Assembly (NCBI GenBank): GCA_013359225.1
Contig: JABWCG010000001.1
Span: 206,362-270,361 of the forward strand
Direction: 5' to 3'
Source: Candidatus Buchananbacteria bacterium
GTDB taxonomy: Bacteria > Patescibacteriota > Patescibacteriia > Buchananbacterales > UBA6539
Length of the DNA: 64,000 nt
The notes beneath the pieces were generated by a model. That model did no database searches and was not told the origin of the DNA. It saw only the letters and a program-made list of their open reading frames with translations. The translations under genes and the position numbers were made by a program. Below, in pieces: positions 11,118-56,453 of this stretch (within the stretch, counting starts at the first letter, position 1; each line of letters begins with the position of its first letter).

Positions 11118-11355
11118 GTGGGACTGGCTCACCATGGGTCCAGTTTGTGTTTGCACCTTATAATTTGGGTTATTGATAACAACGAAAAACGACACCAAAG
11201 GAGTGTCACAACAAGAGGAGATGTGCCTATAAGGAGAGCAGGGAAGCTTTGGCAGGACAAGTGCGTAAGGAACATTTCTTGAGCCGCGCGGCTTGAGAGA
11301 TGAGTGTCGAACAACGTGAAACCGAAACGGAAACGAATGAAGAGGAGTGAAACGA

Positions 11356-14300
11356 ATGAACACGATGGTTCGCAACATGATGGTGTGCGTCATGGCGGCG
11401 CTGGTGGTGCTGTTGACCTCCGGCTGCCCGATGACGCCCGATCCGCCCAACCAGCCGACGCAACCGACGTTCGACGTTCGGACCCGGCTGATTGAAGGCA
11501 AAGCCGAAGTAGTGGTCCGCAACACGGACACGCGACAGGTCAGCATTCAGATTCTGGTCCAGGATGACCGTACCGGCGACTACTTTCCCGCGTACGACGA
11601 AACCGGCGACCAGCTCCTGCGCAGCATCATGCAGCCGGGAGTCCAAACCACCGTAACTGGACAGCTTGTTAACCGCACGTATGAAGGTCACCCCGTGATC
11701 GACATCGGCGGCGGCGGAGTTCACAGTTACTGGTGGTGGGATCCGTATGCGCCGCTGTATCTCTACCCGGTTCCGCCCAGCATAAGCGTGGACTGGGAGA
11801 CATACGTGACTGACGAGGAGATCACCATCACCGAAACGACGTTTGTTGACGGTGAAGGGGCGTACTTGGGCGCACAATTCGTGTTGCCCGAAGCCGGACG
11901 CTACATGGTTCGGGTCACTGGTTTTAACGAGCAGAACGTTGAGTTCAAGCCGTTTGAAACCGTGTTGCCTGACTACGATGGAACAACGCCGGACCCGGAT
12001 CCCGAAGACACCGCCGACCTGGAAGTCCTGTACTTCAGCAATTACGGAGACGTCAACGGGTACGTCTATGGCATCGTCCATGGCGTGAATCCGTCGACCC
12101 ACTCCGTCGCGTGCTACATCAACGTCGACTCAATGTGGTGGCCCAAGCCGGATTTCGGCAACGGCGCCTTGACCCCGTTGGAAAATGGCGGTTACTTTGA
12201 GACCGACATTACCACGGGCGGCGACGATCAGCGCGCAACGTTGATCTACTTGGCTGTGGTGCCAAACGGTACGCAAGTGCCGCAGGCGCCCAGCCTTGAC
12301 CAGCCCTACATTCCGGAAGCGCTCACCAGCAAGCTATTGGTGCGTAATCCCGGACCGGTTGAAGGCGGACCTGGCGTGATTGATTTCACTGAAGTGCCCT
12401 ACTACAAGGATCCTGACGGGGTGCTTCGCGGTACGGTTTCAGGAGTCAATTTCGCTGACTATCAAGTCGCTGTCTACATCCTTGTCGAGGGAGTCTGGTG
12501 GCAAAAGCCGGACTGCACCCTCGTCGACATCATGAGCAATGGTTCCTGGTCGGCTGACGTGACCGTGGTGCCAAGCGACGCGAACGCAACGCAGTTCGCC
12601 GCGTTTCTCGTCCCGCGGGGTACTTCAGTACCCTGCACGGTGTATCCGACCAAGAGCAAATCCTTGGTGGCTGGTATTGATATCCCGGGCGCGGTTGATT
12701 ACGTCATCGTGAACCGGGTACCGCATATCGGCCTGACCAAAATTCCGGCCTACGAAGACACGGTCGGTGACCTGCGCGGTATCGTGGAAGCGCTCGACCC
12801 GACGCAGTACGATATCCATACCTTTATCCGGGTTCCCGGTGAAGGCTGGATTGCGAAGCCGGGCTTTGCGCCTGACGACGCGACGGTTGTTGCCGCTGAC
12901 GGTACGTGGTCGTGTGACATCGTTACCGGATTGCCGGGGCAGACCAACGATCATCGGGCAACTGAGATCTGGGTTTTGCTGTTTGGCAAGGGTGTTGAAG
13001 TAACGCCGTGCGGAGACGCTGTTTGTAGCGACCTGAATATCGACACGGTGGTGAACAACGCCAGTGCTGGGATCTGGGTGAATCGTCGTCCGGGAGCGGA
13101 AGATGAAGAACCTATTATCACCATCATCGGCGCAAACCCGGTCACTTTGGCAGTTGGCAGCGGGCCGTATACCGATTTGGGCGCTACGGCGTTTGATACG
13201 GAAGACGGCGACCTGTCGGCAGAAATCGTTACCACCAATGACGTCAACACGTCGGCGGTGGGAACGTATCACGTGAATTACAGCGTGACGGACAGTGCGA
13301 GCCACACGGTGAACGCTTCCCGAACGGTTCACGTGGTGGATACCGTCGGTCCGGTAATTACCGTTTTGGGCGCAAACCCGCTGCACGTGCAGCAGGGAAG
13401 CGGCCCGTATGTTGATCCAGGCGCCACGGCGTTTGACAACTACAACGGTGACATCACCGGCAGCATTGTGAAGACCGGTTCGGTCGACACGAACACTCCC
13501 GGTACCTACACCATTAACTACAGCGTGCAAGACAGCTCCGGCAACTCTGCCAGCGCTTCGCGCACGGTAGTGGTGGATGAGGTGGTCGAGGATCAACCCC
13601 CGGTCATTACGATCTTGGGGTCAAATCCTCATACCGTCCAAGTCTTGAGCGGCCCGTATCCGGAATCCGGTGCGACCGCCCTTGACCCGGAAGATGGGGA
13701 CATCTCGAACCTGATCGGAACCGTGTCCACGGTGGACATGACGACGATCGGTACGTACAACGTGACCTATTCGGTCACAGACAGCGGCGGCCACCCGGTC
13801 CAAGCGGTGAAAGTCGTTTACGTTGTCGACACGGTGGCGCCGGTTGTTGATCCGATTCCGGACCAGTTCCGTTTGGCGCTGGCATCGGGCGACCTTGATC
13901 TCGGTAACTATGGCTACGACGCGTACGACGAGAACGCGACGTGGTCCATCGTACCCGGATACGACACCAACCTGATTTCGGTGAGCTTGTCGGGAACGAT
14001 CCTGACGATCACCGGGAAAAACGTCGGTGGTACAACCGTACTCACCGTGAAACTGACCGATGGCAGTGGAAATTTCACCACGGCCGACATCAACGTCACG
14101 GTTAGCCCCTGCCAAACGGCATTTATCCAGATTACCGCCGAACCCGGCAGTATTGATGGATTTCCGAATGCGGTGGCCGGCGAAGTGTGCGGCGTCGATC
14201 CGTCAACGCATAAAGTAGTTCTGTACGTTCGCGTGCACGATGCGGTGAGCGGTAACGATTACGCTTGGGTAAAGCCGAACTTCGGGGCCGAGAAATACAC

Positions 14301-14505
14301 GGCCATCAATCCGGACGGCACCTGGGAGTCGTCGGTCGCTCCTGACGCCAATACCTGGAAAGAGGTGCGGGCGTACTTGGTTGAAGATGGTACTTCGATG
14401 CCCGACGCTGGGTCAAGTGGTCCAATGCTGTGGAGCGATTTCCTTGGGTTAAACCTGGAAAACACTTCCGGTGTGCTCGGCCTCGCCTTTGTCACCAACG
14501 GGTGA
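11356..14505 (+). CDS. Large surface lipoprotein with tandem DUF5011-like Ig-fold repeats. The gene is compositionally foreign (GC-rich).
   Basis: The start is ATG 11356, with a GAGGAG RBS 8 nt upstream. The ORF track's GTG at 11347 is too close to the RBS to be the start. The signal peptide has a lipobox 'LLTSGC'. Three tandem ~80-aa repeats of the form 'PVITxxGANPxxxxxGSGPYxDxGATAxDxxDGDxxxxIVxTxxVDTxxxGTYxxNYSVxDSxGN...RTVxVVD' are present. Upstream there are four or more repeats of a ~100-aa module with a conserved 'WW.KPD' motif. Sampled lines are 58-70% GC. Confidence 0.8.
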   Translation: MNTMVRNMMVCVMAALVVLLTSGCPMTPDPPNQPTQPTFDVRTRLIEGKAEVVVRNTDTRQVSIQILVQDDRTGDYFPAYDETGDQLLRSIMQPGVQTTVTGQLVNRTYEGHPVIDIGGGGVHSYWWWDPYAPLYLYPVPPSISVDWETYVTDEEITITETTFVDGEGAYLGAQFVLPEAGRYMVRVTGFNEQNVEFKPFETVLPDYDGTTPDPDPEDTADLEVLYFSNYGDVNGYVYGIVHGVNPSTHSVACYINVDSMWWPKPDFGNGALTPLENGGYFETDITTGGDDQRATLIYLAVVPNGTQVPQAPSLDQPYIPEALTSKLLVRNPGPVEGGPGVIDFTEVPYYKDPDGVLRGTVSGVNFADYQVAVYILVEGVWWQKPDCTLVDIMSNGSWSADVTVVPSDANATQFAAFLVPRGTSVPCTVYPTKSKSLVAGIDIPGAVDYVIVNRVPHIGLTKIPAYEDTVGDLRGIVEALDPTQYDIHTFIRVPGEGWIAKPGFAPDDATVVAADGTWSCDIVTGLPGQTNDHRATEIWVLLFGKGVEVTPCGDAVCSDLNIDTVVNNASAGIWVNRRPGAEDEEPIITIIGANPVTLAVGSGPYTDLGATAFDTEDGDLSAEIVTTNDVNTSAVGTYHVNYSVTDSASHTVNASRTVHVVDTVGPVITVLGANPLHVQQGSGPYVDPGATAFDNYNGDITGSIVKTGSVDTNTPGTYTINYSVQDSSGNSASASRTVVVDEVVEDQPPVITILGSNPHTVQVLSGPYPESGATALDPEDGDISNLIGTVSTVDMTTIGTYNVTYSVTDSGGHPVQAVKVVYVVDTVAPVVDPIPDQFRLALASGDLDLGNYGYDAYDENATWSIVPGYDTNLISVSLSGTILTITGKNVGGTTVLTVKLTDGSGNFTTADINVTVSPCQTAFIQITAEPGSIDGFPNAVAGEVCGVDPSTHKVVLYVRVHDAVSGNDYAWVKPNFGAEKYTAINPDGTWESSVAPDANTWKEVRAYLVEDGTSMPDAGSSGPMLWSDFLGLNLENTSGVLGLAFVTNG

Positions 14506-35990: not shown

Positions 35991-36344
35991 CTAGCACTCG
36001 TGGGGAGCCGGCAAGAACTTGCCGTGTCTCCACTGTTGGCACCAGGCGATGATAATCGTCGGCGCCGCAAACGCGAAGTGAAGGAACGTAAGGGCAACGA
36101 GGTTGCCCAGGTTGTGGCTGTTACCCGCGAGCCAACCGCGGCGGTGGGTGATGGCACCAGCGATGATGCCCCAGCCAACCTGCGAAACGAGGATGATGAG
36201 CATACCCAGGCCCATCATTTCCGGGGCGAAGATTTCCTTCCCCCAGAACTGCTCGCTCGTGAGCCCGACGCCGACGGCGACGAATGCCGTGAGGTAGGCG
36301 AGCATGAACACGTCGAACAGCGCTGCCGCGATAAGCTTTCTCAT
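35991..36344 (-). CDS. GC-rich (foreign-composition) small membrane protein of 117 aa.
   Basis: An AGGAG RBS lies about 8 nt upstream of the ATG at 36342-36344. Three to four hydrophobic helices are predicted. The sampled line 36121-36180 is about 68% GC. Confidence 0.6.
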   Translation of the reverse strand: MRKLIAAALFDVFMLAYLTAFVAVGVGLTSEQFWGKEIFAPEMMGLGMLIILVSQVGWGIIAGAITHRRGWLAGNSHNLGNLVALTFLHFAFAAPTIIIAWCQQWRHGKFLPAPHEC

Positions 36345-36443
36345 CTGATTTTGCTCCTGATTTCGCCGGATTGCTCAAACTTGAGATTTCCCAAGTTGGA
36401 AGGACCACCCTTCCAATAATCCAGCATTTTCAAAGATAAATAT

Positions 36444-42447: not shown

Positions 42448-44241
42448 TTACGGTTCAATGCTTGATTGAATTATTAAATCAATAGATTGCAAAAATGTCG
42501 CCGGCAAAATTTTTTTACTCGCTAACATATCATAAAGTCGCTCCAATATAAAAGTCTTTTTTATATCACTTCTTTTTACAAACCCTTTCATTTTTTCCAC
42601 TTTTGTTATTCTGTCAAGAAGTTTAAAATTGTTTAAATCTTGTTTATTTTTCTGATCAAGATTGAAAAATTTTACTCCTTCCTGCAAAAACCATTTTATT
42701 ATTTCATCAACATTTTCCTGAGAAACTAGGGCTTGTTCGATAGAATCTTTAAATATTAAAAAACCGTTGGTCTTGAAATGTTTTTTGGAATATTTGAATA
42801 TTTTTGATGAATCACCTTGAGACTTAAAATTTTTTTTATAGTATTTAATAAATTTATTAAACCCCACCTTGTTTAACTGTTTCATTTGTATTAACTGATT
42901 TTCCAGGGATTCACAAGAATCTTTCCGTGACATAACATCTCCATCAAAACTGATAATGAGTGGGATGTTAAATTGGCTTATGACTTTGTAATAATCAAAA
43001 ATCCTTGAGTAGCCACCATAGGGAATGATAACCGTAGAAAAGTGTTTTCTCCCTCTCAGGGTTTTTTTAATAATTCTATAGTCCGTAAGCCCCTCAACTA
43101 AAATTGCCTTATCTGAAAAAAACAACTCTGACCCAACTACGTCAGTTTTATCATAAATATCGTACAATAGGCGTGATGTAACAGATATTTGAGTGCTTTT
43201 ACAATCACTTCCTTCTTTCCACATCTTTACTACATTCTTATAGTCTTCAGGTCCAAGCTCGTTCACCACTACCGATGAATGTGTGCTGATTATTGATTGG
43301 GTTTCGTCATTTTTAATGTAGTTAAAAATTGCGCGTTGAGCACCGGGGTGCAAAAATATTTCCGGCTCCTCAATCCCCAATATAACAATTGGCTTAGTGC
43401 CAAGCTGATTGGCAACAAATTTGATCAGCGTTATTAAAATAATACTTTGTAGTCCGGTTCCTTGATATTTAAAATTAGTTTTTATATCATCTTTGTTTAT
43501 AAGATGAAGATTAATGGTTTGGCCCATGAGTTCAATAAAATGCTCTTGGTTAAAAATAAATTCAACTTTTTCATTGTTATCAAAATTAAATTCATGCAAG
43601 ACAGACCCTATTAAATCTTCTGAGTCTTTAAATTTTTTATGAAGTATTGACCAAAAATTATTGTATGCTTTGATATATTTCCGAGCTCCTTGAAGGCTTA
43701 GTTTCAAAAATTCTAAAAGAATGGTTTTTTCAATTTCAGTATCTTTAAGTCTTATTGCTGATATCTTTGCAAATTTAACGTTATTTCTAACGGCCTCAAA
43801 TAATTCATTGGCTTTTGACTTTTCCCCGACAAAGGACGTCAGCTTTCCGCGTTTAGATGTTATGCAAATTTTTCTTTTTTGAATTTCATTAAAATTTCTA
43901 GGATATTCAATCTCAACATCCAATACCAAATTGTCGTGCCCTCGTACTTTCCGAAAATGATAGCCTAATTTTCTAGTGAGTAATTTTTTTGTTTTATCTT
44001 TTTCGAATCTGAGCTTAATCTTAGTGGAAGCCCTGTAGCCACGCCCGCCTTTCTGTAACTGTTGAGGATAATCTAAATCAGAATCGTATGGCGCATCATT
44101 AAAAAATAGATCAAGTGCATTTAGTACGGTAGATTTGCCAGAATTATTTGGCCCTACGAGAAGAAGAAAATCTCCTATATTGAAAGCAGCTGAACCGCAT
44201 ATACTTCTATAATTTTTTATCTCTATGGAAATAAGTCTCAT
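42448..44241 (-). CDS. OLD-family nuclease: an N-terminal ABC-type ATPase plus a C-terminal Toprim domain.
   Basis: Walker A is 'LLLVGPNNSGKST'. The signature-like motif is 'YQGTGLQS'. Walker B / D-loop is 'IVILGIEEPEIFLHP'. The H-loop is 'ISTHS'. The Toprim is 'AILVEGLTDYRII...ISFDGD'. The locus is very AT-rich compared with its neighbours. Confidence 0.8.
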   Translation of the reverse strand: MRLISIEIKNYRSICGSAAFNIGDFLLLVGPNNSGKSTVLNALDLFFNDAPYDSDLDYPQQLQKGGRGYRASTKIKLRFEKDKTKKLLTRKLGYHFRKVRGHDNLVLDVEIEYPRNFNEIQKRKICITSKRGKLTSFVGEKSKANELFEAVRNNVKFAKISAIRLKDTEIEKTILLEFLKLSLQGARKYIKAYNNFWSILHKKFKDSEDLIGSVLHEFNFDNNEKVEFIFNQEHFIELMGQTINLHLINKDDIKTNFKYQGTGLQSIILITLIKFVANQLGTKPIVILGIEEPEIFLHPGAQRAIFNYIKNDETQSIISTHSSVVVNELGPEDYKNVVKMWKEGSDCKSTQISVTSRLLYDIYDKTDVVGSELFFSDKAILVEGLTDYRIIKKTLRGRKHFSTVIIPYGGYSRIFDYYKVISQFNIPLIISFDGDVMSRKDSCESLENQLIQMKQLNKVGFNKFIKYYKKNFKSQGDSSKIFKYSKKHFKTNGFLIFKDSIEQALVSQENVDEIIKWFLQEGVKFFNLDQKNKQDLNNFKLLDRITKVEKMKGFVKRSDIKKTFILERLYDMLASKKILPATFLQSIDLIIQSSIEP

Positions 44242-44340: not shown

Positions 44341-44415
44341 TGGTAGCGCCACGGGGAATCGAACCCCGGTTACATGGATGAGAACCATGCGTCCTAGCCG
44401 CTAGACGATGGCGCC
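44341..44415 (-). tRNA. tRNA-Glu(CUC).
   Basis: The reverse complement folds as a cloverleaf with anticodon loop TTCTCAT, T-loop GGTTCGATTCC and an encoded CCA. A minus-strand TTGACT-17-TATTAT promoter lies upstream. Confidence 0.85.
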
Positions 44416-50109: not shown

Positions 50110-50212
50110 AATAGTTATGAAGTCTGCAGAAGGGAAAAATCCCTTTTGGCCCTGATATTTCGGGGTAATTTCACAGACTTTACGCTCGTGTTCCAACTTA
50201 TGGAGGCAGGAC

Positions 50213-50683
50213 ATGTTTTTCAGGGTCAATCTGGCAACGTTGGAGGTGGAACGGTTGAATGTTCGTAACCTCTCGGAAGTTCCGGGGGTTAAGAGCAACG
50301 GCCAGCACTACCAGCTCGAAGGTTTCGCCCTCGTTGAGGTGCGAACCCCAAGCTGCGAGATGCTGCTGTTTCATCCGGAAACCCAGTCCAGCAGCGGTCA
50401 CATCGACGTGACCTATCGGCCGCAGCGGCACGACGGTGCCTACGGGGTGGACATGCAGATGTACACTCATGGCTGCGAATTGGACTTCGCCAACGACCAC
50501 TCCTTCCAGTATCACTGGCCGTCGGGTCAGTGGCATCTCTTGATGGCGATCGACGCCATCGAGCAGTTCCTGAAGCAGGAAATCGGCTACACGCCGCACC
50601 TGCGCGAGTACATCGGCCACACCTTCCGGCCCACCCCGCCCAAGCTCGCGAACCTTGAGCCTGGTGAATCGGCCGCCGCCTAA
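50213..50683 (+). CDS. GC-rich (foreign-composition) hypothetical protein of 156 aa.
   Basis: A GGAGG RBS sits 6 nt upstream of the ATG. A strong terminator follows. The sampled line 50401-50460 is about 65% GC. No motif was recognised. Confidence 0.6.
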   Translation: MFFRVNLATLEVERLNVRNLSEVPGVKSNGQHYQLEGFALVEVRTPSCEMLLFHPETQSSSGHIDVTYRPQRHDGAYGVDMQMYTHGCELDFANDHSFQYHWPSGQWHLLMAIDAIEQFLKQEIGYTPHLREYIGHTFRPTPPKLANLEPGESAAA

Positions 50684-50707
50684 TCTAGGCACGGCGGCAA
50701 GCCCCAC

Positions 50708-52518: not shown

Positions 52519-53628
52519 ATGGTCTTAAAAAGATTCTCAGGAATTTTAAAGAATTTCGATTGGGTATTGTTTGGTGCTTGCGTGTTGCTGATTTGTTTCG
52601 GCTTGGCGGCTATTTACAGTATCGCGATCAGTTCGGACGAACCAAACTGGGTTAATTTTCAAAAACAAATTGTGTTCGCTGTTATTGGCATTTCACTGAT
52701 TTTTGTAATCAGTTTTTTTGATTATCGTCTTTGGCGCGATTTTAGTTATTTTTTATACGCTGGCGTGATTATTCTGTTGCTGCTGGTGTTATTTTTTGGT
52801 GTCACGGTCAGCGGTACCACGGGGTGGTTTTCGGTGCTGGGTGTTAATTTCCAGCCGGTTGAGTTGGCTAAAGTCGTATTAATCATTTTTTTGGCCTGGT
52901 TTTTTTCCACGCGCGGTTCGGATGTCCGGCAGTTTAAAAATTTTTTGATCAGCGCCGGAGCGACTGGATTATTTTTTATGCTGGTGATGTTGCAGCCGGA
53001 TTTTGGATCTGGAATAATTTTGATTTTTATCTGGATGTTTATGCTGTTTTTTTCAAAAGTGAATAAAAAGCATCTGATTACAACCGGAGTATTATTTGGC
53101 GTGATGGCAGTGGTCGCTTGGTTTTTTGTTTTCCAGCCTTATCAGAAAGATCGTATTCTTTCGTTTTTTGATCCTCAGGCTGATCCATATGGCCGAGGGT
53201 ACCACGTGCGCCAGGCCGTCACCGCCGTTGGCGCCGGGCAGTTTTTTGGCCGGGGTTTGGGGTTTGGTTCACAAAGCCAGTTAAAGTTTATTCCGGCCAG
53301 CGAAACAGACTTTATTTTTGCGGTGATCGCCGAAGAGCTTGGATTTTTAGGAGTGGGGTTAATTTTATTTTTTTGGTCAATTATTTTTTATCGGTTGATT
53401 CGGGCTGCGAAATTAATTTCCGCTAAAGATGACTTTGGTGCCTTTTTTATTCTGGGGGTTTCCGCGCTATTTTTTGTCCAAATCATGATTAACATCGGCA
53501 TGAATATCGGTCTGGTTCCGGTAACTGGTATTTCGCTGCCGTTTTTAAGCTACGGCGGCAGTTTTCTAGTTATCAGTCTAGTGTTGATTGGCATGGTTGA
53601 AAGTATGATTGTTAGAAACGAAATCTAA
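52519..53628 (+). CDS. SEDS-family peptidoglycan polymerase (FtsW/RodA).
   Basis: A ten-helix protein carries the SEDS motif 'PASETDFIFAVIAEELGFLG'. Confidence 0.85.
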   Translation: MVLKRFSGILKNFDWVLFGACVLLICFGLAAIYSIAISSDEPNWVNFQKQIVFAVIGISLIFVISFFDYRLWRDFSYFLYAGVIILLLLVLFFGVTVSGTTGWFSVLGVNFQPVELAKVVLIIFLAWFFSTRGSDVRQFKNFLISAGATGLFFMLVMLQPDFGSGIILIFIWMFMLFFSKVNKKHLITTGVLFGVMAVVAWFFVFQPYQKDRILSFFDPQADPYGRGYHVRQAVTAVGAGQFFGRGLGFGSQSQLKFIPASETDFIFAVIAEELGFLGVGLILFFWSIIFYRLIRAAKLISAKDDFGAFFILGVSALFFVQIMINIGMNIGLVPVTGISLPFLSYGGSFLVISLVLIGMVESMIVRNEI

Positions 53629-54134
53629 TGAAGCTATTGGCAACATTAAATCTTGACCAGGTTTCGGAAAAAGTTTTTGCTAATTACCAAACGCGCCGAG
53701 CTGTCCGCGCCATCGTTTTTGACGAGCAGGGAAATTTAGCATTATTAGACGTAACGAAACTGCACTATCACAAACTGCCTGGCGGTGGCGTTGAAAAAGA
53801 TGAAACTGATCTGGAGGCTTTGGCCCGAGAATGCCGGGAAGAAATTGGCTGTGATATTAAGGTGATTTCGGACGTCGGCCGCATTGTTGAAATCCGTAAA
53901 AAGTTTAAATTAAAGCAGGAATCAATCTGCTATTTGGCTAAGGTGGATGGACCAAAGCGCCAGCCCGCATTTACCGCTAAGGAACGCCGTGACGGTTTTG
54001 CCGTTTTGTGGTGCAGTCCGACCTCGGCGTTAAGCATATTGGCGGCCGACCGAATAATGGATTACCACGGACAAAACGTTAATAAGCGGGATTCACTGTT
54101 TCTTAAAACGGCATTAGACTTGACTAAACCATAA
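53628..54134 (+). CDS. NUDIX hydrolase.
   Basis: The Nudix box 'GGGVEKDETDLEALARECREEIG' is present. Confidence 0.75.
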   Translation: MKLLATLNLDQVSEKVFANYQTRRAVRAIVFDEQGNLALLDVTKLHYHKLPGGGVEKDETDLEALARECREEIGCDIKVISDVGRIVEIRKKFKLKQESICYLAKVDGPKRQPAFTAKERRDGFAVLWCSPTSALSILAADRIMDYHGQNVNKRDSLFLKTALDLTKP

Positions 54135-54140
54135 TTTTAG
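54117..54140 (+). repeat. Direct repeat, copy 1 (24 nt exact; 27 of 28 nt with flank).
   Basis: GACTTGACTAAACCATAATTTTAG overlaps the NUDIX stop codon. It is identical to 55412-55435. Confidence 0.85.
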
Positions 54141-54329
54141 ATTATTATAGAACAGCGCTACAGTAAGAGTATGCAGATAATAAATAAAGTTTTATTTAAC
54201 CACGCAATCATCTTAGAACTAACTGGCTTGTCCGAGCCAGGATTCTTAGTTTAGTAGTTAAATCGTTTTAAACAAGAACTGGCTCGCTGATAAAGCGGCC
54301 AGTTTTAATTTATATTAATTTATAATTAT

Positions 54330-54713
54330 ATGAATCGAAAAATTTATATCACCCGCCAAGATTACGAAAAATTAAATAAAATGCTTGACGAAAAGCTTAA
54401 GCTTGGTAATGAAAAATATATTTCAGCCTTAGCGGCTGAGTTAGCCAAGTGTGAAATAGTAGAACCGTCAGATATCTCTAGGGATGTGGTAATAATGAAT
54501 TCCCGGGTTTCTTTTAGAATATTGGATGATAATTCGGAGATGACTTATTCGTTGGTGTTTCCTGACGAGGCCGATATCAACAGCGGAAAAATATCAATCC
54601 TTTCGCCGATTGGTACTGCTTTAATTGGGTATGGCGTGGGGGATATTGTTGAATGGGAAGTGCCCTCAGGTATCGCGCGGATAAAAATTGAAGCAGTGGA
54701 ACATCAAAACTGA
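54330..54713 (+). CDS. GreA/GreB-family C-terminal-domain protein (Rnk-like regulator).
   Basis: 'ISILSPIGTALIGYGVGDIVEWEVPSGIARIKI' matches the Gre FKBP-like domain. Confidence 0.65.
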   Translation: MNRKIYITRQDYEKLNKMLDEKLKLGNEKYISALAAELAKCEIVEPSDISRDVVIMNSRVSFRILDDNSEMTYSLVFPDEADINSGKISILSPIGTALIGYGVGDIVEWEVPSGIARIKIEAVEHQN

Positions 54714-54739
54714 TATTTTAGAGAAATAATTAATCGTAT

Positions 54740-55390
54740 ATGTTCGACAAAAAAACAGTTGGTAAGATTATTCGTACTTTGATTATCTCCGATTTCTTTT
54801 TATTTTTTGCAGTTGGTTTATTGGCTCCCATATTCGCGGTGTATATTCTTGAGAATATTGAAAACAGATTAGAAGTTATCGGGTACGCCGTATCATGCTA
54901 CTGGATTACCAGGGTAATCATGGTGATTCCGTTAAGTCGGGTGATGGACAACATTAAGGGAGAATTTGATGAATATTTTTTTATGATTATCGGTACGTTT
55001 TTGATTTCAGCAATTCCGCTGTTTTATATTATTGCTTCCGCGCCCTGGCATATTTATGTGTTGCAAATTATAAATGGGTTTGCCCATTCAATGGCAGTAC
55101 CGGCTTGGCGCATAGTTTTTACCAATAATGTTGATAAAAGCATTGTTGGTTTTGAGTGGTCATTAGAGGATGTCGGGGTTGGGATTGCCACGGCATCAAG
55201 CGCCGCCATTGGCGCTATTGTGGCTGATCGTTTTGGTTTTAACGTGTTGTTTGGCTTAATATTTTTATTTGGAACGATTAGCTCTTTAATTCTTCTAACT
55301 CTTAATAAAAGCAAGCAATCAATTTTGCGAAGTTTCCTTGGCGGCCAGACTCATGATAAAGGACCTTTGAAAATTGACACTTTTAAATAA
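54740..55390 (+). CDS. Hypothetical membrane protein.
   Basis: Six transmembrane helices are predicted. Confidence 0.5.
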   Translation: MFDKKTVGKIIRTLIISDFFLFFAVGLLAPIFAVYILENIENRLEVIGYAVSCYWITRVIMVIPLSRVMDNIKGEFDEYFFMIIGTFLISAIPLFYIIASAPWHIYVLQIINGFAHSMAVPAWRIVFTNNVDKSIVGFEWSLEDVGVGIATASSAAIGAIVADRFGFNVLFGLIFLFGTISSLILLTLNKSKQSILRSFLGGQTHDKGPLKIDTFK

Positions 55391-55411
55391 TAGTAAAGAT
55401 ATTTTTAGTTG

Positions 55412-55435
55412 GACTTGACTAAACCATAATTTTAG
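55412..55435 (+). repeat. Direct repeat, copy 2.
   Basis: An intergenic copy identical to 54117-54140. Confidence 0.85.
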
Positions 55436-55454
55436 GTTATTTTATAGAGACCTT

Positions 55455-55787
55455 ATGGAGGATAAATATTTCAATTTATTCAACGACAATAACACGCCGA
55501 TAACGCATTGCCCGGTTTGTCAGATGCGCTATGATCCGCTTGAGGCGCGGATTTTGGATGAAGCTGAAAACAGCCATTTGGTCCATGTTAAATGCCACCA
55601 CTGTCAGTCGGCAGTATTGGCGGTATTATTGACCAATCAGCTGGGAATCAGTTCAATCGGTTTGGTGACTGATTTAAGCAGTGACGATGTCATGAAGTTT
55701 AAATCGGTGCTACCGGTAAGTGTTGATGATGTGATTGAAGCCCATGAGTTTTTACACAGTCAAAAAGTTTTGATTGATAAAATTTAA
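55455..55787 (+). CDS. Hypothetical Cys4 zinc-finger protein.
   Basis: 'HCPVCQ...CHHCQS' is present. Confidence 0.4.
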   Translation: MEDKYFNLFNDNNTPITHCPVCQMRYDPLEARILDEAENSHLVHVKCHHCQSAVLAVLLTNQLGISSIGLVTDLSSDDVMKFKSVLPVSVDDVIEAHEFLHSQKVLIDKI

Positions 55788-55814
55788 TTATTAATAAGAA
55801 AGCGCGAGGAAGTA

Positions 55815-56453
55815 ATGACTAATGCTAATTTAAACCTCAAGACTAAAACTCGTACCGCCGTCGGCAAAGCCGTCGCCGCGTTGAGAAAGTCGGGTAAAAT
55901 TCCAGCAGTGTTATATGGCCACGGCGTTGATCCAGTTAACTTGGAAGTAGACTATAGTCAATTTGAAAAAGTCTACCGCCAAGCCGGCGATAGTACCTTG
56001 GTTGATTTGGCGGTTGACGAAAAGTCACCAGTCAAAGTTCTAGTCCAAGACTATCAGCTTGATCCGACGACTAGCCGGTATACCCACGTTGATTTTTACC
56101 AAGTTCGAATGGATGAAAAACTCCATACCGATATCGTGTTGAAGTTTGTCGGTGAAGCACCGGCCATTAAAGAACATTCCGGCATTTTGGTAACTGCTTT
56201 GTCGGAAGTGGAAGTTGAATGTTTGCCTGCTGACCTGGTCCACGAAATTGAAGTTGATCTGTCAGTGCTTAAAGAGATTGACGTTCCAATCCATATTTCT
56301 GACATCAAGGCTCCGGCTGGCATCAAAATTCTCAATCATCCAACAGACGTGGTGGCGCTAGTTCAGCCACAACGAGTGGAAGAAGAGAAGCCGGCGGTTG
56401 TTGAAGAAACAGCTGCACCAGCTCAGACCACTGAACCTGCTGAGGAAAAATAA
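55815..56453 (+). CDS. rplY: 50S ribosomal protein L25 / general stress protein Ctc.
   Basis: The N-terminus 'RTAVGKAVAALRKSGKIPAVLYGHG' matches L25. An acidic C-terminal tail is present. Confidence 0.85.
   Translation: MTNANLNLKTKTRTAVGKAVAALRKSGKIPAVLYGHGVDPVNLEVDYSQFEKVYRQAGDSTLVDLAVDEKSPVKVLVQDYQLDPTTSRYTHVDFYQVRMDEKLHTDIVLKFVGEAPAIKEHSGILVTALSEVEVECLPADLVHEIEVDLSVLKEIDVPIHISDIKAPAGIKILNHPTDVVALVQPQRVEEEKPAVVEETAAPAQTTEPAEEK

Follow-up and report, generated by a model that had tools for sequence, protein, structure and literature searches.

A predicted core promoter is duplicated around a two-gene insertion upstream of the Cys4–rplY operon in Candidatus Buchananbacteria

A 64-kb stretch of DNA from Candidatus Buchananbacteria, a lineage of the Patescibacteria (candidate phyla radiation, CPR), contains a direct repeat on either side of two genes, rnk and a gene for an MFS-like protein with six transmembrane segments (6-TM). 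The whole stretch is called the window below and is numbered along its + strand. Comparison with related genomes demonstrated that a single predicted core promoter had been duplicated around an inserted transcription unit. The repeat very probably represents a ~36–40-bp duplication of the core promoter of the resident Cys4–rplY operon, which encodes a small protein with four cysteines and ribosomal protein L25, and it flanks a ~1.26-kb cassette that was inserted into that promoter.

The 24-mer GACTTGACTAAACCATAATTTTAG occurs exactly at 54117–54140 and 55412–55435, on the + strand in both cases, and allowing up to three mismatches revealed no further site in the 64 kb. An earlier inspection of the letters (the sequence-only reading) had described this exact repeat, the overlap of its first copy with the stop codon of a NUDIX gene and the intergenic position of the second, all of which we confirmed. 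Copy 1 covers the end of the NUDIX gene (TAA stop at 54132–54134); copy 2 starts 18 nucleotides (nt) past the stop codon of the 216-amino-acid (aa) membrane protein and ends 6 nt before the ATG of Cys4. The match had also been judged very unlikely to arise by chance, in agreement with the absence of the 24-mer from 100 dinucleotide-preserving shuffles of the window. The degenerate similarity of about 12 nt noticed beyond the 24-mer is real and proved to be longer than described: without gaps the repeat spans 36 nt with 33 identities (54114–54149 versus 55409–55444), and with a 2-nt indel it reaches approximately 38/40 nt, through ATAGA (54114–54151 versus 55409–55448). Both junctions were seen again in independent Logan assemblies from two runs, L001 reading across copy 1 and L003 across copy 2. 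The search for more copies that the sequence-only reading had proposed yielded none beyond these two in the window, and the exact 21-mer had zero matches in three public collections (genome_contigs, metagenome_contigs and viral_contigs), from which the source species is absent. The repeat motif is not widespread.

Each repeat copy is a predicted sigma-70-type core promoter. This identity had been missed previously: judged by its motifs, the repeat contains all core promoter elements of the Cys4–rplY operon (−35 box TTGACT, 17-nt spacer and −10 box). Both copies combine TTGACA- and TATAAT-like hexamers with a spacer in the range of 16–18 nt. Copy 1 (TTGACT-17-TATTAT) agrees with the consensus hexamers at 10/12 positions and is the best promoter match in the region, while copy 2 (TTGACT-17-TATTTT) scores 9/12; the other strong matches to promoters in the window are likewise built as TTGAC(A/T)-N17-TAnnnT. 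Relative to the uninterrupted sites of relatives described below, copy 1 has a G>A change at 54141 and a 2-nt deletion, which result in a better −10 box, and the 3′ part of copy 2 is identical to the empty-site consensus TTTTAGGTTATTTTATAG.

The history of the site was read from relatives, the comparison covering 80 loci of representative genomes and 10 metagenomic loci. The loci that retained synteny had the recurrent order (HlyD-like)–FtsW–Cys4–L25(–DUF3048)–DnaX, and none of these carried NUDIX, rnk or MFS genes between FtsW and Cys4. All FtsW–Cys4 spacers examined contained TTGAC(A/T)-N17-TA(T/C)ATT ending 6–15 nt before the Cys4 ATG, and the general TTGAC(A/T)-N17-TAnnnT pattern was found at the conserved position in L004, L005, L008 and others, L088–L097 and L105–L108. 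Since every relative has a promoter there, copy 2 can be placed in the ancestral promoter position of the Cys4–rplY operon.

The decisive loci, L105 and L106, were obtained via the closest NUDIX homologues. L105 has the order FtsW–NUDIX–Cys4–L25–DUF3048–DnaX, with aa identities of 86% for FtsW, 85% for L25, 81% for Cys4 and 77% for DnaX, and L106 has FtsW–NUDIX–Cys4 with 89% aa identity in FtsW. In both, NUDIX and Cys4 are separated by 25–32 nt with a single promoter site and without rnk or MFS genes, and the site is unbroken from the C-terminal NUDIX codons to ATGGAGGATAAA; in L106, it reads GCG TTA GGC TTG ACT AAA TTA TAA TTTTAGGTTATTTTATAGGAATCTT ATG GAG GAT AAA. Here the −35 box is formed by NUDIX codons for Leu-Thr, and the spacer includes the stop codon of that gene. 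L108 (FtsW 82%), L004 and L088–L097 have the promoter directly between FtsW and Cys4, without NUDIX, rnk or MFS. In the window, the NUDIX flank of the empty site is found on copy 1 and the Cys4 flank on copy 2, with the homology stopping at ~54151 on the left and resuming at 55409 on the right. The arrangement typical of att sites, direct repeats around an insert and a one-copy empty site in relatives, was found, and the empty sites bear out the earlier proposal that the repeat brackets an inserted module. Relatives with NUDIX directly before Cys4, which had been suggested as a check, exist in L105 and L106, where NUDIX is followed by Cys4 (and in L105 by rplY) with one copy of the site in between. 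As L108 also lacks NUDIX, the loci record nested gains, from FtsW–P–Cys4 (P, promoter) through FtsW–NUDIX–P–Cys4 to FtsW–NUDIX–P–[cassette]–P–Cys4, and because NUDIX was gained at the same place, the FtsW–Cys4 promoter region is a recurrent insertion hotspot.

These comparisons bear directly on two explanations that do without an insertion. If a transcription factor bound the CTAAA-N7-TTTAG palindrome, selection rather than duplication could keep the two copies alike, and across L105, L106, L108 and the window the CTAAA and TTTAG arms are indeed kept around 7 variable central nt. These variable 7 nt are, however, identical in both window copies, the identity covers the flanks as well, and comparison with the empty sites of relatives reveals directly how an insert turned one site into two. 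Moreover, TTTAG(G/C)T before the −10 box recurs in other promoters of this genome and of the family and for that reason looks like general promoter grammar. We consider a shared regulatory site very improbable as the origin of the repeat; an operator within the promoter could still exist, but would leave the repeat unexplained. Even less can be said for a dispersed element similar to a repetitive extragenic palindrome (REP) or for a terminator or 3′ untranslated-region motif, to which we assign a negligible probability. The latter idea, raised in the sequence-only reading, could point to a weak 5-bp inverted repeat inside the 24-mer. Elements of the REP type have many copies per genome, whereas two were found in 64 kb with up to three mismatches and none in the three large collections. 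CTAAA-N7-TTTAG forms a 5-bp A/U stem with neither a G+C-rich stem nor a U-run, its place within the spacer of the promoter precedes the predicted transcription start, and the terminator scan does not flag the 24-mer. A true terminator-like hairpin is found elsewhere, in the rnk leader 140 nt farther downstream.

We propose that the ancestor had one promoter, with the −35 box in the last NUDIX codons, the stop codon in the 17-nt spacer and the −10 box ending 11 nt before the Cys4 ATG, as that of copy 2 does today. The cassette would have landed immediately after the −10 box so that a promoter came to lie on both sides, copy 1 now presumably transcribing the leader, rnk and the 6-TM gene and copy 2 keeping Cys4–rplY expressed. 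An insertion without duplication would orphan the operon because the −10 box is just 11 nt from the Cys4 ATG. The duplication matters because what was repeated appears to be the full core promoter of Cys4–rplY, the position of which is conserved in every relative.

A 951-nt Logan contig from an unrelated run, L107, added a second view of the right junction. It covers the final 66 codons of the 6-TM gene and continues through the 18-nt linker and copy 2 into Cys4, here the closest homologue (83% aa identity), and L25. On the side of the cassette and copy 2, it differs from the window by 2 mismatches in 261 nt (~99% identity), while the 691 columns from 55449 onwards contain 139 mismatches or gaps (nucleotide identity of 79% for Cys4 and 80% for L25). 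The contrast is highly significant (Fisher p ~1e-18) and the break at 55449 falls on the right edge of the repeat. Copy 2 of L107 is identical to that of the window at 41/42 positions, the first mismatch of the flank type being at 55449, and its spacer is the AAACCATAATTTTAGGT of the window, whereas L105, L106 and L108 differ at 2–5 spacer positions. The pattern suggests that the cassette together with its promoter copy was recently exchanged between genomes that are ~20% diverged, in a tract ending at the repeat edge. This evidence comes from one short contig and concerns the right junction.

As to how the cassette entered, we regard Campbell-type (ends-in) homologous recombination as the most likely route, with less certainty than the promoter duplication itself. 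A promoter copy borne by the cassette would have recombined with the resident promoter without any recombinase encoded by the cassette. The route is favored because the sequence from the promoter to the start codon is the most conserved nucleotide stretch among relatives, because the identical 24-nt core is about as long as such recombination needs, and because the three differences between the copies are proximal to the cassette while the host-proximal parts match the empty-site consensus. A one-off illegitimate insertion accounts for much of the same evidence. In an ancestor of the lineage, foreign or translocated DNA would have been ligated into a staggered break of ~40 nt at the promoter, the filling-in of which duplicated the promoter and left a passive scar around a cassette that is not mobile; the L107 pattern would then reflect later homologous recombination between relatives or a chimeric contig. 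It is consistent with a direct repeat that flanks the insert exactly, with the empty sites in relatives and with the lack of a recombinase and of inverted repeats. No further copy of the cassette was found via protein clusters at 90% identity among 15 billion proteins, where all six proteins are singletons, and mutation subsequent to the duplication could explain the three differences between the copies. Against it, the boundaries match a full transcription unit (from the leader start to 18 nt past the last stop codon) together with an entire core promoter, a coincidence rarely expected of a random break, and the change from 99% to 80% identity in L107 falls exactly at the repeat edge. An illegitimate origin is possible in our view, albeit with a clearly minor share of the probability.

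Site-specific integration, in which the repeats would be attL and attR of a mobilizable element and a tyrosine or serine recombinase would be supplied from another part of the genome or by a helper element, seems improbable. It would fit the direct repeats with an identical core, the single empty site seen in relatives, and the cassette DNA of L107, which appears to be nearly identical in a diverged host up to a boundary at the repeat. The Pfam search, however, found no recombinase (integrase or transposase) domain in the cassette, in line with the earlier observation that no integrase lies inside, and the adjacent genes (FtsW/RodA, NUDIX, Cys4, L25, DUF3048 and DnaX) include none either. Furthermore, the target is a promoter rather than a tRNA or tmRNA gene or a gene 3′ end, the viral collection gave no match, and the cassette had no blastn match in phage and plasmid collections. 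We know of no class of integrase-less satellites of 1.3 kb. The sequence-only reading had seen the repeat as characteristic of att-site duplication by site-specific integration or of a deletion or duplication scar; the insertion stood up to analysis, and for its mechanism Campbell-type homologous or illegitimate insertion fits as well as integration by an integrase would.

Several points weigh against the reading of a promoter duplicated by homologous integration. Promoter activity and transcription start sites are predictions from sequence. The hybrid attL/attR pattern of differences fits about half of random arrangements, which makes it weak support, and a ~40-bp duplication could equally stem from the one-off repair of a staggered break. 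L107 could be a chimeric assembly across the conserved promoter stretch of at least 30 nt, and if so, the evidence for horizontal exchange disappears; such a chimera would need a second organism with an identical spacer. Precise secondary deletion between the repeats could in principle have produced the empty sites, but the 15/15 module-free relatives weigh against this. Finally, the search for copies and for a recombinase acting in trans covered 64 kb of a 601-kb contig.

Going further, the cassette (promoter, leader, rnk and 6-TM gene) might be a recombinase-free mobile unit that uses a conserved core promoter as a portable "att site". We hold this extension to be doubtful, as something to be entertained rather than expected. 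If true, a mobile cassette would spread among diverged Patescibacteria by DNA uptake and homologous recombination at a ~40-bp promoter; the newly arrived genes would automatically come under the resident promoter, and the nearly leaderless operon that they interrupt would have one restored.

The features of the locus are collected in Table 1.

Table 1. Coordinates of the repeat copies, the inserted cassette and the neighboring genes in the window
Feature	Coordinates	Strand	Description
Repeat copy 1 (left)	54114..54151	+	TTAGAC, predicted −35 TTGACT (54120-54125), AAACCATAATTTTAGAT, predicted −10 TATTAT (54143-54148), AGA
Repeat copy 2 (right)	55409..55448	+	TTGGAC, predicted −35 TTGACT (55415-55420), AAACCATAATTTTAGGT, predicted −10 TATTTT (55438-55443), ATAGA
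Inserted cassette, ~1.26 kb	54152..55408	+	Between the repeat copies; not in any empty-site relative
rnk leader	54152..54329	+	Hairpin 1, intrinsic-terminator hairpin and T-run
Leader hairpin 1	54223-54240	+	CTGGCTTGTCCGAGCCAG
Leader intrinsic-terminator hairpin	54277-54304	+	AACTGGCTCGCTGATAAAGCGGCCAGTT, RNA AACUGGCUCGCUGAUAAAGCGGCCAGUU, then U-run, 25 nt before the rnk ATG
NUDIX hydrolase gene	53628..54134	+	Pfam NUDIX, E=9e-14; resident side
rnk	54330..54713	+	Pfam Rnk_N (PF14760) and GreA_GreB C-terminal (PF01272)
6-TM MFS-like membrane protein gene	54740..55390	+	216 aa; Pfam MFS_1, half of the profile
Cys4 (CxxC...CxxC) gene	55455-55787	+	110 aa; first gene of the resident operon (55455..56453)
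rplY (ribosomal protein L25)	55815-56453	+	Pfam Ribosomal_L25p and TL5_C

The cassette starts just after the −10 box of copy 1, with an untranslated leader of 178 nt that precedes rnk and the 6-TM gene. The Rnk protein scored 113.2 bits against the NCBIfam equivalog NF004396 (cut-off 109) and its domains identify it as an Rnk/Gre-family factor of the RNA-polymerase secondary channel, annotated as "nucleoside diphosphate kinase regulator". The nearest Rnk homologues are at most 55% identical and reside in unrelated genomic contexts. A conserved module of rnk and the 6-TM gene was considered and rejected, the Rnk homologues adjoining genes for patatin, FxsA, a Na/Ca exchanger, LysR and other proteins. 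The best representatives of the 6-TM protein among 1.84 billion proteins are nearly all of 200–220 aa and align over their whole length; the gene is accordingly intact and natively half-size. The last NUDIX codons, L-D-L-T-K-P-stop, lie in copy 1, with TTG ACT (Leu-Thr) forming the −35 box, and the protein is full length compared with homologues of 164–176 aa, its C-terminus being ALDLTKP versus ALGLTKL in P0059. An insert in the form of a random fragment with truncated edge genes was rejected, given the full-length NUDIX and the native size of the 216-aa protein. Terminal inverted repeats of the cassette were not found; the sole inverted pair near its ends (I1) is 71% complementary and A/T-rich. 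The G+C contents (GC) of rnk (0.393) and of the 6-TM gene (0.376) are within one standard deviation of the window genes (0.426 ± 0.049), the slight dip not being significant, and the cassette is on that account not compositionally foreign.

The leader has a predicted folding energy of −43.2 kcal/mol (z = −3.8 versus shuffles). Its first hairpin, CUGGC...GCCAG, followed by AACUGGC...GCCAGUUUU, is also found upstream of rnk in L087 and L084–L086, and in all of these and in the window the second element, a terminator hairpin, lies 13–29 nt before the rnk ATG. Both hairpins have ACUGGC and GCCAG arms. The leader occupies 5855–5962 in L087 and 5868–6003 in L084, and the design was seen in three independent low-GC lineages of the CPR type; the motif was absent upstream of the higher-GC, non-CPR rnk genes. 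In the 1.36 Mb of fetched loci, the terminator motif was present upstream of rnk and nowhere else, and it occurs once in the window. Rfam had no credible match in 53900–55700 at E ≤ 10, and the whole window gave just two tRNAs at the gathering threshold. In L087, a TTGACA-17-TACAAT promoter of its own precedes the conserved leader block by 41 nt, and in the window, copy 1 sits 56 nt upstream of this block. Copy 1 would thus fill the promoter slot of the rnk unit since the L087 promoter takes the equivalent position, and the leader, as its conservation indicates, belongs to rnk and travels with it.

With the 3′ arm of the terminator omitted, segment 2 is predicted to pair with segment 3 in all three leaders, and two positions of this pairing are compensatory between the window and L087. 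These predicted folds of three sequences hint at attenuation in the leader. A simple antiterminator model was not clear-cut: the full-length minimum-energy fold of L087 nests the 1:4 pairing around 2:3 and still ends in a U-run. We regard the leader as a candidate GraL-like attenuator of a Gre-family gene, the structure of which rests mainly on sequence conservation in three independent examples. The E. coli greA leader is described as having a strong promoter and an intrinsic terminator at which two-thirds of transcripts stop, with GreA autoregulating through the GraL leader (PMC2836576, PMC6829880). Both have a Gre-family gene and the same layout of a promoter followed by a terminator-containing leader; in contrast to greA, the gene here is rnk, and there is no sequence or Rfam similarity.

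Other features of the promoters and of the surroundings deserve mention. The promoter of tRNA-Glu (44458–44430, − strand; tRNA at 44415–44341) shares TTGACTAAA...TATTATAGAA with copy 1. It reads TTGACT-AAAAGCCAAAAATTAGT-TATTAT-AGAA, so that the −35 box, AAA, the −10 box and the AGAA start are common to both, and the 2-nt deletion in copy 1 produced exactly the −10/start sequence of the tRNA-Glu type. In the spacers (54126–54142 and 55421–55437), the central 7 nt between the CTAAA and TTTAG arms kept in the close relatives L105, L106 and L108 vary as CCATAAT, TTATAAT, ATATCAT and TCCAAAT; the arms may belong to a general promoter grammar or form a small palindromic operator. In all relatives (L004, L088–L097 and L105–L108; 55438–55457 in the window), the −10 box ends 6–15 nt before the conserved ATGGAGGA(T/A)AAA start, leaving no room for a Shine-Dalgarno sequence, and the Cys4–rplY mRNA appears to be nearly leaderless.

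The Cys4 protein matches no Pfam or NCBIfam family and has 58 homologues, mostly of 111 aa; its gene is directly upstream of rplY in many Patescibacteria, and it may be an uncharacterized zinc-ribbon-like partner of the L25 gene. The NUDIX gene is itself lineage-specific at the same spot, being present in the window, L105 and L106 and missing from L108 and more distant relatives, and its aa identity of 61–63% makes it much more diverged than its neighbors (77–89%). The TAGTAAAGATATT upstream of copy 2 was considered as a remnant of the ancestral FtsW stop, as prompted by TAAGATA(T/A)T in L004 and L093, and this was dropped because the much closer L105 and L106 reveal the 3′ end of NUDIX as the left flank in the ancestor. 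Farther away, a gene at 42448–44241 (−), adjoining tRNA-Glu, encodes a 597-aa OLD-family nuclease (AAA_15/AAA_21 ATPase and OLD-like TOPRIM domains). Its GC of 0.32 is the minimum for the window, and it probably represents an acquired defense gene. Three high-GC outliers (0.58–0.60 versus 0.43 for window genes) were noted at 11347–14505 (+), 36000–36419 (+) and 50198–50707 (−). The first encodes a protein of 1052 aa that includes three bacterial surface Ig-like domains. Pfam has no match for the other two, short open reading frames that are possible markers of high-GC patches of a non-coding or foreign nature.

Known systems resemble the locus in part. Target-site duplications of transposons and insertion sequences (IS) are typically 2–15 bp long. 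Here, too, a direct target duplication immediately flanks the inserted DNA, but it measures 36–40 bp and there is neither a transposase nor terminal inverted repeats. As in Campbell attL/attR integration, a single empty site became two direct copies with an identical 24-nt core around an insert, an interrupted resident function (here the promoter) was apparently restored by the duplicated copy, and insert DNA in L107 appears to be near-identical in a diverged host with its boundary at the repeat. Unlike in that system, no integrase or excisionase is present, the ~1.3-kb insert encodes just Rnk and the 6-TM MFS-like protein, two genes of the housekeeping type, the target is a core promoter, and the recombination may be homologous (RecA-type) instead of site-specific. 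Putative mobile promoters (PMPs) were described by Matus-Garcia, Nijveen & van Passel 2012 (PMC3488235) as upstream stretches of 50–100 nt with at least 80% identity. The locus shares with mobile promoters and promoter reuse, as presented there and in PMC3575422, a highly similar promoter sequence before two non-homologous units of one genome and, presumably, the rewiring of acquired-gene expression. The similarity spans 36–40 nt with unrelated flanks, so that the concept of PMC3488235 applies while the length falls below its operational threshold. Also, one promoter was split and duplicated by an insertion whose history is readable, rather than a promoter having moved to a silent gene. Altogether, the insertion scar is tidy but fairly ordinary, being notable for the lack of a recombinase, and promoter reuse combined with a scar of unusually long, promoter-sized duplication constitutes a variant on a known theme.

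As a by-product, the analysis yielded a conserved terminator-containing rnk leader absent from Rfam, and by analogy with E. coli greA, Gre-family factors in these bacteria may be subject to attenuation. The locus provides a base-pair-resolved case from the poorly understood CPR in which a small genome appears to have gained genes without silencing a ribosomal-protein operon, through duplication of the core promoter, which left one for the newcomer and one for the resident. The significance rises if the cassette moves between species with the promoter as its attachment site. If the evidence of L107 holds, there was a very recent exchange between species ~20% diverged at a conserved promoter without a dedicated recombinase, which would bear on the part that recombination and natural competence play in shaping CPR genomes.

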